Source: Escherichia coli (GTDB lineage Bacteria; Pseudomonadota; Gammaproteobacteria; Enterobacterales; Enterobacteriaceae). From it: a stretch of 2,395 bases of DNA. The stretch lies in the NCBI RefSeq assembly GCF_003334335.1, contig NZ_QOWQ01000088.1. One strand, written 5' to 3'. The position numbers and the translations under genes are program-made. This document shows positions 1-2,395 of this stretch, piece after piece. The notes beneath the pieces were generated by a model, which saw nothing but the letters and a program-made list of their open reading frames with translations, was not told where the DNA came from and searched no databases. Numbering within the stretch: position 1 is the stretch's first letter; every line of letters starts with the position of its first letter.

Positions 1-51
1 GAACGCCCACCGCGTCCGTCCCGCACATTCCAGCAACGCATCTGGAGGTAA
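1..51 (+). CDS. 3' end of an upstream gene (partial, product unknown)
   Basis: Frame 1 is open from the window edge to TAA at 49-51 (tail ...ERPPRPSRTFQQRIWR*). The stop lies 1 nt before the GTG at 53, a typical translationally coupled junction. Only 17 codons are visible, so the product cannot be identified. Confidence 0.3.
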   Translation, partial: ERPPRPSRTFQQRIWR

Positions 52-52
52 C

Positions 53-1117
53 GTGCGGGTATTACTTCGACCTGTTCCGGTACCGGAACTTGGGCTGGTG
101 GTCCTTAAACCAGGCCGTGAATCCATGCAGGTATTCCATAACCCTCGAGTACTGGTGGAGCCGGAACCGAAAAGCATGCGTAATCTGCCGTCCGGAGTCG
201 TCCCTGCTGTTCGCCAGCCGCTGGCGGAGGATAAATCATTACTGCCATTTTTCAGCGATGATCGGGTGATTCGTGCTGCTGGTGGCGCTGGGGCACTGTC
301 TGACTGGCTGTTGCGTCATGTCAAATCCTGCCAGTGGCCTCATGGTGACTATCATCACAGTGAAATCGTCATACATCGTTACGGTACCGGCGCGATGGTG
401 TTGTGCTGGCACTGCGACAACCAGCTGCGTGACCAGACATCCGAATCACTCGGGCAACTTGCTCATCAAAACCTGTCAGCATGGATGATTGACGTCATCC
501 GTCACGCAATCAGCGGTACGCAGGAGAGGGAGTTATCGCTGGCCGAATTATCCTGGTGGGCGGTCTGCAATCAGGTGGCTGATGCGCTTCCGGAGTCTGT
601 ATTGCGTCGTTCACTGGGATTACCGGTGGAAAAAATCCGCTCCGTATACAGTGAGAGCGACATCGTACCGGGAGAACAGACAGCCACTAGCATACTGAAG
701 CAGCGCACAAAAAATATTGCGCTACCGCCTCACGTCCACCAGCACCAGCAACAGAACCCACCACAGGAAAAGACGGTGGTCAGCATTGCCGTTGATCCGG
801 AATCTCCGGCTCAGTATCTCCAGCGCCAGAAACCACAACGGGAAGAGATGCCTGTATACACGCGCTGGGTAAAAACGCAGAAATGCATGACGTGTGGCAA
901 TCAGGCAGATGATCCGCATCACATCATTGGTCATGGACTGGGAGGTATGGGAACAAAGGCTGACGATTTGTTTGTTATTCCGTTGTGCCGTAAATGCCAT
1001 AACGAACTACACGCCGGAGTAAAAGATTTTGAAGAGAAACACGGCAGTCAGCTGTTGTTGCTGATTCGTTTTTTAATGCACGCGAGAAATTCGGGTGTTC
1101 TGAAGTGGAAAGCATAA
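53..1117 (+). CDS. DUF968-like prophage protein with C-terminal HNH/His-Me-finger-like zinc-binding motif (putative nuclease)
   Basis: 1065-nt ORF (354 aa) with GTG start at 53, GGAGG at 45-49 and stop TAA at 1115-1117 directly abutting the rusA ATG. C-terminal residues 278-320 (nt 884-1012) read CMTCG...DDPHH...LCRKCHNELH, i.e. CxxC...HH...CxxCH-N-x2-H, the HNH/His-Me finger signature. Proteins of this architecture commonly sit just upstream of rusA in lambdoid prophages (family assignment is from memory, not a search). The start is uncertain: the SD-to-GTG spacing is short and in-frame ATGs occur at 125 and 176. Confidence 0.75.
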   Translation: MRVLLRPVPVPELGLVVLKPGRESMQVFHNPRVLVEPEPKSMRNLPSGVVPAVRQPLAEDKSLLPFFSDDRVIRAAGGAGALSDWLLRHVKSCQWPHGDYHHSEIVIHRYGTGAMVLCWHCDNQLRDQTSESLGQLAHQNLSAWMIDVIRHAISGTQERELSLAELSWWAVCNQVADALPESVLRRSLGLPVEKIRSVYSESDIVPGEQTATSILKQRTKNIALPPHVHQHQQQNPPQEKTVVSIAVDPESPAQYLQRQKPQREEMPVYTRWVKTQKCMTCGNQADDPHHIIGHGLGGMGTKADDLFVIPLCRKCHNELHAGVKDFEEKHGSQLLLLIRFLMHARNSGVLKWKA

Positions 1118-1486
1118 ATGACCGAGCGCATAGAATTTGTTTTGCCTTACCCGCCGACGGTGAACACTTACTGGCGACGCCGTGGCAGCACATATTTTGT
1201 ATCAAAAGCCGGGGAGCGTTATCGCCGGGCAGTGGCGCTTATTGTTCGCCAGCAGCGACTGAAATTAAGCCTGTCCGGAAGGCTGGTAATCAGGATTATT
1301 GCAGAGCCACCGGATAAGCGTCGTCGTGACCTGGACAATATTCTGAAAGCACCGCTGGATGCGCTGACGCACGCGGGGTTGTTAATGGACGATGAGCAGT
1401 TTGATGAAATCAATATTGTACGTGGCCAGCCAGTATCTGGTGGACGGCTGGAGATAAGAATTACAGAGGTGGGTGTGCATGAATAA
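1118..1486 (+). CDS. rusA: Crossover junction endodeoxyribonuclease RusA (Holliday junction resolvase)
   Basis: 122-aa ORF whose ATG immediately follows the upstream stop (TAAATG at 1115-1120). The translation carries recognisable RusA blocks: LPYPPTVN.YW near the N-terminus, PDKRRRDLDN (catalytic aspartate cluster), DALT.AGLL.DDEQ, and GGRLEIRITE near the C-terminus. The size matches the ~120-aa RusA family. Confidence 0.9.
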   Translation: MTERIEFVLPYPPTVNTYWRRRGSTYFVSKAGERYRRAVALIVRQQRLKLSLSGRLVIRIIAEPPDKRRRDLDNILKAPLDALTHAGLLMDDEQFDEINIVRGQPVSGGRLEIRITEVGVHE

Positions 1487-2168
1487 CCAGTATTTACAGT
1501 TTGTTCGTGAGCAACTCATGATTGCCACTGCAGATCTCAGTGGGTCGACAAAATGCCAGCTGGAAGCCTGGCAGGAAAATGCCCTGTTCGATACAGGGCG
1601 TTACAGACGCAAAAAAATTCGTTACCGCGATGAGGTAACCGGAAAAATGATCACGCGGGATAATCCCCCGATCCAGGGTAAACAATCACTGGCGAAAGGC
1701 TCATCAATTGCGCTGGTCAGTCCTGTTGAGTTTGCAACATCATCGTGGCGGCGTGCCGTTCTGGAACTGGAAGAACATCAGAAGGCGTGGTTGTTGTGGT
1801 GTTATGGCGGAAACATTTGCTGGGAGCATCAGATCGCGATAACGCAGTGGGTGTGGAGTGAATTTAAAACTCAGTCCGGCTCCAGAAAAATTGCAGTGAA
1901 AACGCTGGAGCGTGTGAAGAAGTTGATCTGGCTGGCGGCACAGGATGTCAGAGGATGGGTTACCGGGTGTGAGGTCTACCAGAGACAGGAGCTTGCCAGA
2001 CTGTGTGGAGTTAAGCCTGATAACTGGAGCCATAATTATGCGAACTACTGGCGTGAGATGTGCGATATTTTTAAGCGCCTCGATAGAGAATCCTTGATTT
2101 GCTCCGTGAAAATAAGAGCGCAACAAAAAGCGACCTTTTCACGACGAGATATTGCAAAAGTCAATTAA
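1479..2168 (+). CDS. Putative late-gene antitermination protein Q-like (assignment by synteny, not by recognised motif)
   Basis: Open frame with stop TAA at 2166-2168. I prefer the ATG at 1479 (MNNQYLQ..., 229 aa) over the GTG at 1473 because GAGGT at 1466-1470 gives an 8-nt spacer; this start overlaps the rusA stop by 8 nt. The gene sits immediately downstream of rusA and about 70 nt upstream of a strong intrinsic terminator, the canonical position of Q in lambdoid phages. I do not recognise a diagnostic Q motif and see no CxxC zinc-finger pairs, so the function is inferred from gene order. Confidence 0.5.
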   Translation: MNNQYLQFVREQLMIATADLSGSTKCQLEAWQENALFDTGRYRRKKIRYRDEVTGKMITRDNPPIQGKQSLAKGSSIALVSPVEFATSSWRRAVLELEEHQKAWLLWCYGGNICWEHQIAITQWVWSEFKTQSGSRKIAVKTLERVKKLIWLAAQDVRGWVTGCEVYQRQELARLCGVKPDNWSHNYANYWREMCDIFKRLDRESLICSVKIRAQQKATFSRRDIAKVN

Positions 2169-2257: not shown

Positions 2258-2380
2258 ATGTCCGAAAATCGCGTCAGTACAGTAAACGCGCTGGTGGCGG
2301 TGAATACCTGTCTTTCAGCTTGCTGGCTTTTTCGACAAGAGTTATTGGTGTGTCACGTTAACCGGAAAAGGGAAAAAGAC

Positions 2381-2395
2381 ATGCTAAAACAGCAG
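2381..2395 (+). CDS. Possible 5' end of the downstream gene (partial, product unknown)
   Basis: ATG at 2381 (MLKQQ...) preceded by the purine-rich AAAAGGGAAAAAG (2365-2377), with GGG about 8 nt upstream. The frame is open to the window end, but only 5 codons are visible. An in-frame ATG at 2258 could extend it, but that stretch is rich in rare codons. Confidence 0.3.

Follow-up and report, generated by a model that had tools for sequence, protein, structure and literature searches.

Interlinked packing of ydfU, rusA and Q in a probable Qin-like lambdoid prophage of Escherichia coli

Packing of the genes at three junctions

A stretch of 2,395 nucleotides (nt) of Escherichia coli DNA (assembly GCF_003334335.1, contig NZ_QOWQ01000088.1; hereafter the window) carries four open reading frames (ORFs) with homology, all on the plus strand, in the order phrog_1212 ORF, ydfU (DUF968), rusA and Q. 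At the three junctions between them, successive stops and starts abut or overlap, with distances of +1, 0 and -8 nt. Our best explanation, taken as a whole and held with good confidence, places the window at the promoter-distal end of an early-right operon, equivalent to ninR, in a Qin-like lambdoid prophage, where ydfU, rusA and Q would be read from one polycistronic mRNA and ribosomes finishing one gene would help to start the next. The packing itself is ordinary and already known; it confirms the gene calls without departing from established knowledge. It adds one more example of interlinked packing in lambdoid nin regions, and it makes no open question newly testable.

At the first junction, the TAA of the upstream gene (49-51) is followed by a single C (52) and then by the GTG of ydfU (53-55), with GGAGG at 44-48. 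At the second junction (1115-1120), the TAA of ydfU (1115-1117) directly abuts the ATG of rusA (1118-1120), in frame and without a Shine-Dalgarno sequence (SD). At the third junction (1479-1486), the ATG of Q (1479-1481) lies inside rusA, whose TAA stands at 1484-1486, giving the 8-nt overlap ATGAATAA. A first-pass annotation of the window had described the junctions as TAA(49-51)-N-GTG(53), an adjacent TAA-ATG at 1115-1120 and an 8-nt overlap of rusA with the next gene at 1479-1486, and on reading the sequence all of these coordinates are correct to the base. The program-made ORF list gives 53-1117, 1118-1486 and 1473/1479-2168. The window also has the gene run of a ninR-type region: same-strand genes end at Q, and a strong hairpin with a T-run follows at 2230-2258.

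Genome-wide, 24% of same-direction gene pairs in E. coli are separated by -8 to +6 nt (PMC10666635), and on this base rate three junctions out of three in that range would occur in about 1% of cases. Despite this expectation, tight packing is the norm for this kind of operon. In the prophage of the closest relative (L001), there are about 10 other same-strand pairs upstream, 7 of them at -8 to +2 nt, and all six junctions of the phage 82 nin region (X92588) are overlaps, of 4, 1, 8, 4, 4 and 4 nt. The ninR region of lambda was called a "chain of interlinked genes" as early as 1982 (Kroger & Hobom, as cited in PMC7166090). Thus the packing is indeed what is expected of a nin-region operon, as the first-pass annotation had put it, since phage 82, L001 and the other relatives are similarly tight. 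The same annotation had proposed comparing the junctions in related prophages; the first junction proved invariant in 91 relatives, and the second and third are tight though variable. The junctions of relatives stay tight even in cases where neighbouring gene modules have been swapped.

The likeness to phage 82 nin (orf33-orf151-orf56-orf96-rus-orf45-Q) and lambda ninR extends to gene organization. In these regions, as in the window, small recombination or accessory genes on a single strand, between the replication genes and Q, end in Q, and stops and starts overlap or abut at every junction; in phage 82, rusA is also located just upstream of Q. Unlike lambda and phage 82, the window has ydfU/DUF968 and the phrog_1212 ORF in place of ninB-ninH/orf151-orf96. 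It also lacks the ylcG/orf45 gene that phage 82 carries between rusA and Q, and its distances of +1, 0 and -8 nt differ from the -4 nt that predominates in phage 82. The cryptic Qin prophage of E. coli K-12, with the order (hypothetical ORF)-ydfU-ydfT/quuQ, is another close parallel: the first 809 nt of the window, including the upstream ORF, are 86.5% identical to it, and its first junction, ctggaggtaacGTGCGG, is the same as that of the window. K-12 Qin differs from the window in the C-terminal half of YdfU, in its Q family and in lacking rusA; there, a 13-nt spacer with an SD separates ydfU from Q.

Start codon of ydfU

The ydfU-type gene (53-1117, plus strand) has a GTG start and a TAA stop and codes for 354 amino acids (aa). 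Seven independent lines give strong support to GTG 53 as its correct start, which the first-pass annotation had proposed. The SD, GGAGGT (44-49), is located within TGG AGG TAA, the codons that close the upstream gene, and a spacing of 3-4 nt separates it from GTG 53. Its predicted duplex with the 3' end of 16S rRNA (-10.7 kcal/mol) is in the top 3.7% of window positions, and the core GGAGG is present in 90 of 91 relatives, the remaining one (L076) having GGAGA. The stop-N-start arrangement was found in all 11 annotated E. coli loci and in all 80 IMG/VR loci, as TAAC-GTG (76), TAAT-GTG (3) or TAAC-ATG (1); in one relative, ATG replaces GTG at the same position. The IMG/VR scan, made with a single protein, gave close relatives only.

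The variation between relatives points to the same codon. A codon-phase test used the variable sites of 63 distinct sequences. Of the 31 such sites in the 72 nt that precede the stop (-76 to -5 relative to the ydfU start), 20 are third positions in the upstream frame (p 4e-4) and just 7 are third positions when read in the ydfU frame. Past the junction, the third positions of ydfU take 15 of 26 variable sites in 53-124 (p 0.009) and 15 of 25 in 125-175 (p 0.006). The codon periodicity thus changes frame exactly at the first junction.

These data bear on the longer form of the protein (375-376 aa), reported by some gene callers, in which ydfU would start within the preceding gene and carry the extension MSGSLIPNAHRAHPAHTSNGSGGN. 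Upstream of GTG 53, the ydfU frame indeed stays open until a stop at -78, and in some alleles (P0005, P0014, P0048, P0094) there is an ATG at -69, a position that falls outside the window, which begins at -52. Nevertheless, this interval holds no in-frame start codon in 10 of the 11 E. coli loci, the sites from -76 to -5 vary in the upstream gene's frame, and the extension is absent from distant homologues. The extended form was thus rejected, and a start of ydfU upstream of GTG 53 is extremely improbable. The 375-aa database forms are an out-of-frame read of the upstream gene where an ATG occurs at -69.

A search for YdfU homologues covered 1.84 billion representative proteins. Most full-length homologues, with identities as low as 30%, align with YdfU from the first residue of both proteins, and they share the N-terminus MRxLLxP..G.V..KPG. 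Distant DUF968 loci carry SDs before this same N-terminus, GTG again being the start codon in one of them. Among five distant DUF968 genes (30-51% identity) with unrelated upstream neighbours, four start -10, -4, -1 or +3 nt from the preceding stop.

A start at an internal ATG (125 or 176), which would leave 53-124 as an untranslated leader, has in its favour that ATG is a stronger start codon than GTG and that a few database entries begin at the equivalents of residue 25 or 42 (P0157, P0160, P0191, P0173). However, there is no usable SD before either ATG, the duplexes reaching -7.2 kcal/mol at zero spacing and -5.6 kcal/mol at 14 nt, and codon 25 (ATG 125) is Ile in YdfU of E. coli K-12. The third-position bias in 53-124, the conservation of residues 1-24 down to 30% identity and the SDs that precede the same N-terminus in distant loci also speak against it. 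Internal starts were rejected on the basis of SD, Ile codon, periodicity and homologue N-termini, and we consider them very unlikely. The SD, the phase switch, the Ile at codon 25 and the conserved N-terminus all favour GTG 53. For annotation, this establishes GTG as the start of a DUF968/YdfU protein that is widespread in prophages and for which some gene callers give extended (375 aa) or internally started forms instead.

The product of 53-1117 is a DUF968/YdfU nuclease-like protein. Residues 1-351 align with positions 1-334 of the 334 of phrog_96, Pfam domain PF06147 (DUF968) covers residues 160-346 (E 3e-63) and HNHc_6 covers residues 269-330. The protein consists of a conserved N-terminal domain and of DUF968 with a C-terminal HNH/His-Me finger motif, CxxC...HH...CxxCH being visible in the translation; the family is recognized by this Pfam domain together with the C-terminal Cys/His motif of HNH type. 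Neither an NCBIfam model for YdfU nor a related solved structure was found. The C-terminal half of the window YdfU is a different allele from that of K-12, because K-12 ydfU matches positions 1-809 only. Two database YdfU proteins (P0001 and P0002, 411 and 449 aa) contain internal tandem duplications of 60-100 residues, which could reflect either faulty assembly or a true expansion of repeats in the linker region.

Proposed translational coupling and the start of rusA

The three junctions are not equivalent in SD content: ydfU and Q have strong SDs and rusA has none. The duplex predicted before the rusA start (-3.7 kcal/mol) is about the median of window positions, the start lies in an unpaired A-rich stretch, and folding gave no structural signal at the second junction (z -0.7). 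In IMG/VR, TAA or TGA abuts the ATG in 74 of 76 loci; the ydfU stop is TGA in 56 of the 76 relatives and TAA in the window. As its unpaired, A-rich ATG comes directly after the ydfU stop without an SD, rusA is the one gene here that probably depends on termination-reinitiation for its expression. It would most likely rely on ribosomes that have just terminated on ydfU, and such reinitiation would tie the output of RusA to that of YdfU and keep it below.

Translational coupling at the junctions is what we infer from this arrangement. The distances of +1, 0 and -8 nt all fall within about -8 to +6 nt, the range of co-directional pairs (PMC10666635), and are within the effective range of termination-reinitiation in E. 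coli (PMC10666635, PMC6728339). All five overlapping E. coli pairs that were tested showed strict coupling, in which the SD played a varying part (PMC6728339), and coupling falls steeply with distance (PMC10666635). Coupling at +1, 0 and -8 nt is thus plausible. The E. coli pairs known to use termination-reinitiation (ATGA/TGATG; hyfH-hyfI, menD-menH; Huber et al. 2019, 2023) resemble the genes of the window in being same-direction pairs at -8 to +6 nt whose SD, where present, is inside the upstream coding sequence. Unlike the canonical pairs, which overlap by -4 or -1 nt, none of the three junctions has either overlap, and the window genes are not known to belong to the class in which such overlaps are enriched, that of subunits of one complex.

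At the first and third junctions, de novo recruitment of ribosomes would be possible through the strong SDs embedded in the preceding gene. There the upstream ribosome would mainly keep the local mRNA open, since hairpins predicted at 20-59 and 1464-1522 take in the SD and/or the start. The hairpin at the first junction (20-59, plus strand) has two parts: 20-26 would pair with 53-59, including GTG 53-55 (GUG with CAC), and 28-33 with 42-47, including GGAG of the SD (GGAG with UUCC). Its predicted free energy is -17.8 kcal/mol (z -3.4), none of 200 dinucleotide shuffles was as stable, and it is retained in all close relatives (-13.5 to -19.3 kcal/mol). As a possible structural basis for coupling at the first junction, it is suggestive only.

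Several observations weigh against this picture of coupled genes. Coupling is not needed at two of the three starts, those of ydfU and Q, given their strong SDs. In E. coli, a gap of +2 nt cut reinitiation by 5-70% depending on the pair (PMC10666635), and because this effect varies so widely the efficiency of coupling here is not predictable. Exact abutment at the second junction is not required, one relative having a +1 gap. A second allele of this junction has a 12-nt spacer, aagaggtgactg, with its own SD, AAGAGGTG, and is accompanied by a different YdfU C-terminus and a different RusA allele; because relatives carry it, abutment is not obligatory. The hairpin 20-59, strong against shuffles, fails a codon-preserving null: 6.3% of synonymous recodings fold as well (p 0.063), and 27% of the recodings of the upstream codons also mask the SD and the start. 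Among relatives it shows no two-sided compensatory changes, and it is absent in distant homologues. It was thus rejected as a selected structure and retained as a mere possibility, and the hairpin at the third junction (1464-1522) was rejected as a structural signal given its z of -1.8. Finally, coupling, co-transcription and start usage are all read here from the nucleotide sequence.

Part of this evidence would also suit compaction without functional coupling, in which pressure on genome size and recombination at gene boundaries bring the genes together and each is initiated de novo. Such a reading draws on the strong SDs before ydfU and Q, on the junction-2 allele with a proper SD in its 12-nt spacer, on hairpins that are statistically unconvincing, and on the mosaic third junction, which ranges from -14 to +18 nt with unrelated downstream genes and homology breakpoints at about 1451-1477. 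On the other hand, the rusA of the window is without any SD, so that de novo initiation would be weak, coupling was found in five of five E. coli pairs that overlap or abut (PMC6728339), and the geometry of the first junction is invariant in 91 of 91 relatives. We regard compaction alone as unlikely, while giving it serious consideration, and favour coupling, above all for rusA.

A stricter form of coupling can also be proposed, in which translation of ydfU, and of rusA by way of its SD-less TAA-ATG, would be confined to ribosomes that have already passed through the phrog_1212 ORF or that follow such ribosomes. In such a serial relay, the hairpin 20-59 would bury the GGAGG and the GTG within the last ten codons of the upstream gene. 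If true, this would result in decreasing doses of nuclease and resolvase, and we find it rather doubtful.

The in-frame position of ydfU and rusA raises another question, as readthrough of the single TAA or TGA would produce a YdfU-RusA fusion protein. Most relatives (56/76) have the leakier TGA, and DUF968-RusA fusion architectures are reported to exist (PMC4118853). Nevertheless, an in-frame placement is expected in one case out of three, the +1 gap breaks the frame in one relative, and the 12-nt spacer allele holds a second in-frame TGA. Also, a fusion of about 477 aa was found in none of the 120 closest database clusters. Readthrough into such a fusion is thus highly unlikely.

The rusA gene (1118-1486, plus strand) codes for a Holliday junction resolvase of 122 aa. 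The protein matches phrog_34, and its residues 6-119 align with positions 5-118 of the 120 of NF007305 with 92 bits. NF007305 is an exception model with a cut-off of 200 bits, and because the score is below it the window protein is a member of the RusA family and not the K-12 protein itself. It is co-linear with the structure of E. coli RusA (1Q8R) over 113 residues (7-119 against 6-118, E 6e-25), and its RRRDLDN and DD motifs, which hold the acidic catalytic residues, are kept.

Third junction and the antiterminator gene Q

The SD of Q, GAGGTGG (1466-1472), is embedded in the 3' end of rusA, and its predicted duplex (-10.5 to -11.4 kcal/mol) is in the top 2-4% of window positions. An additional in-frame GTG at 1473, omitted in the first-pass annotation, comes directly after the SD with no spacer. 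As this GTG sits right behind the SD, ATG 1479 is the better start, and it fits both the calls of the Prokaryotic Genome Annotation Pipeline (PGAP) in relatives and the PHROG profile. The same 8-nt overlap is present in L001 and L003 and is rare among relatives, where the commonest form is a 4-nt ATGA overlap. In all 69 evaluable IMG/VR loci the distance at this junction is between -14 and +18 nt, with several unrelated downstream genes. The junction is a mosaic joint, and homology breakpoints in database matches fall at about 1451-1477.

Q (1479-2168, plus strand; 229 aa) is an antiterminator of phage 82 type. Residues 1-221 align with positions 1-223 of the 224 of phrog_304 (E 5e-103), a full-length family homology, and over 1477-1948 the DNA shares 77% identity with phage 82 Q (X92588). 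PGAP names it "bacteriophage antitermination protein Q". No NCBIfam model was found for the window Q, and no solved structure related to it by sequence. The three gene calls of the first-pass annotation are thus real genes, for DUF968/YdfU, RusA and a phage-82-type Q.

Antisense ORFs and RNAs

The longest minus-strand ORFs are 1740-2126 (128 aa) and 722-1000 (92 aa). Both are open in the window and in L001, which speaks for an independent antisense protein gene within the operon. However, neither has a PHROG match, 1 to 7 stops interrupt them in other relatives, and the variable sites, distributed 54/41/86 and 4/7/18 over the sense codon positions, follow the sense frame. Both ORFs were rejected as genes, and there is almost no chance that either is one. 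For annotation, they can be set aside. The first-pass annotation had argued from the packing that no independent antisense gene is present here. The absence of such a gene agrees with the stops in relatives and with the sense-frame variation; the packing as a reason does not stand. Antisense genes and RNAs can lie within packed operons, and for this reason tight packing does not argue against an antisense gene.

Three terminator-like hairpins with T-runs follow one another on the minus strand at 1554-1639, in the 5' part of Q, and contribute to an excess of terminator-like matches in the window (9 found, 2.0 expected). Since phage 82 and the other Q alleles have them disrupted, they were rejected as the end of an antisense RNA comparable to lambda paQ; the coding sequence probably gives rise to them incidentally. 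The cII box (TTGC-N6-TTGC) has no exact match in the window, and matches with one mismatch are no commoner than chance.

In several relatives (L001, L004), PGAP annotates a 59-aa antisense "hypothetical protein" (L001 3653-3832, minus strand) that overlaps the 5' end of the phrog_1212 ORF. This call adjoins hokD, and it may correspond to a Sok-like antisense region or be an over-call.

Upstream gene, downstream region and prophage setting

The upstream gene of the phrog_1212 family is represented in the window by its last 16 codons and its stop (1-51, plus strand; TAA 49-51). Its full length in relatives is 90-92 aa (PGAP coding sequence at L001 3779-4051), and its alignment to phrog_1212, a family of unknown function, reaches the end of the profile (E 1e-36). 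The closest complete E. coli genome is 95.5% identical to the window overall, and an IMG/VR contig has 97.8% identity across bases 1-1451. In relatives (L001, L004-L012), the neighbourhood consists of hokD/rem and a small ORF upstream, then ydfU-rusA-Q, and lysis genes downstream, and it is that of a Qin-like lambdoid prophage. On transcription as a single antiterminated mRNA that starts at the early rightward promoter, the sequence evidence is of a negative kind: promoter-like sites inside the operon are not in excess (3 found, 2.3 expected), and the scan of the window gave no convincing plus-strand terminator before 2230.

On the 3' side of Q, the hairpin with T-run at 2230-2258 is strong and bidirectional. 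The region 2152-2258 resembles the PR'-tR' unit of 6S type on which Q of lambda acts, with a candidate late promoter and a short leader. The possible promoter, TTGCAA (2152) and TATGTT (2175) separated by 17 nt, was read by eye and was not reported by the scan. A search of Rfam gave nothing above gathering score; weak matches to isrK and to a Phe leader cover the terminator region, that to isrK (Salmonella Gifsy-1, RF01394) covering the full model with 19 bits, below the gathering score.

For the first ORF past the terminator (window 2258-2395; L001 6252-6572), the probable start is ATG 2258, right behind the terminator T-run, in place of ATG 2381, the PGAP call in relatives. The 41 additional codons match positions 1-39 of phrog_331 (E 1e-6) and raise the score from 124 to 155 bits. 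The 3' arm of the terminator stem serves as the SD of this ORF, AGGTGG (2244-2249).

Database matches to the window end sharply at about 809, 1451-1477 and 2232, which correspond to mosaic module boundaries. Many prophages match positions 1-1451/1464 and then carry an unrelated Q, the DNA of phage 82 matches 1477-1948 only, and from 2232 onward the window matches other Shiga toxin (Stx) phages. In strain FORC_081, a deletion fuses base 81 to a truncated Q.

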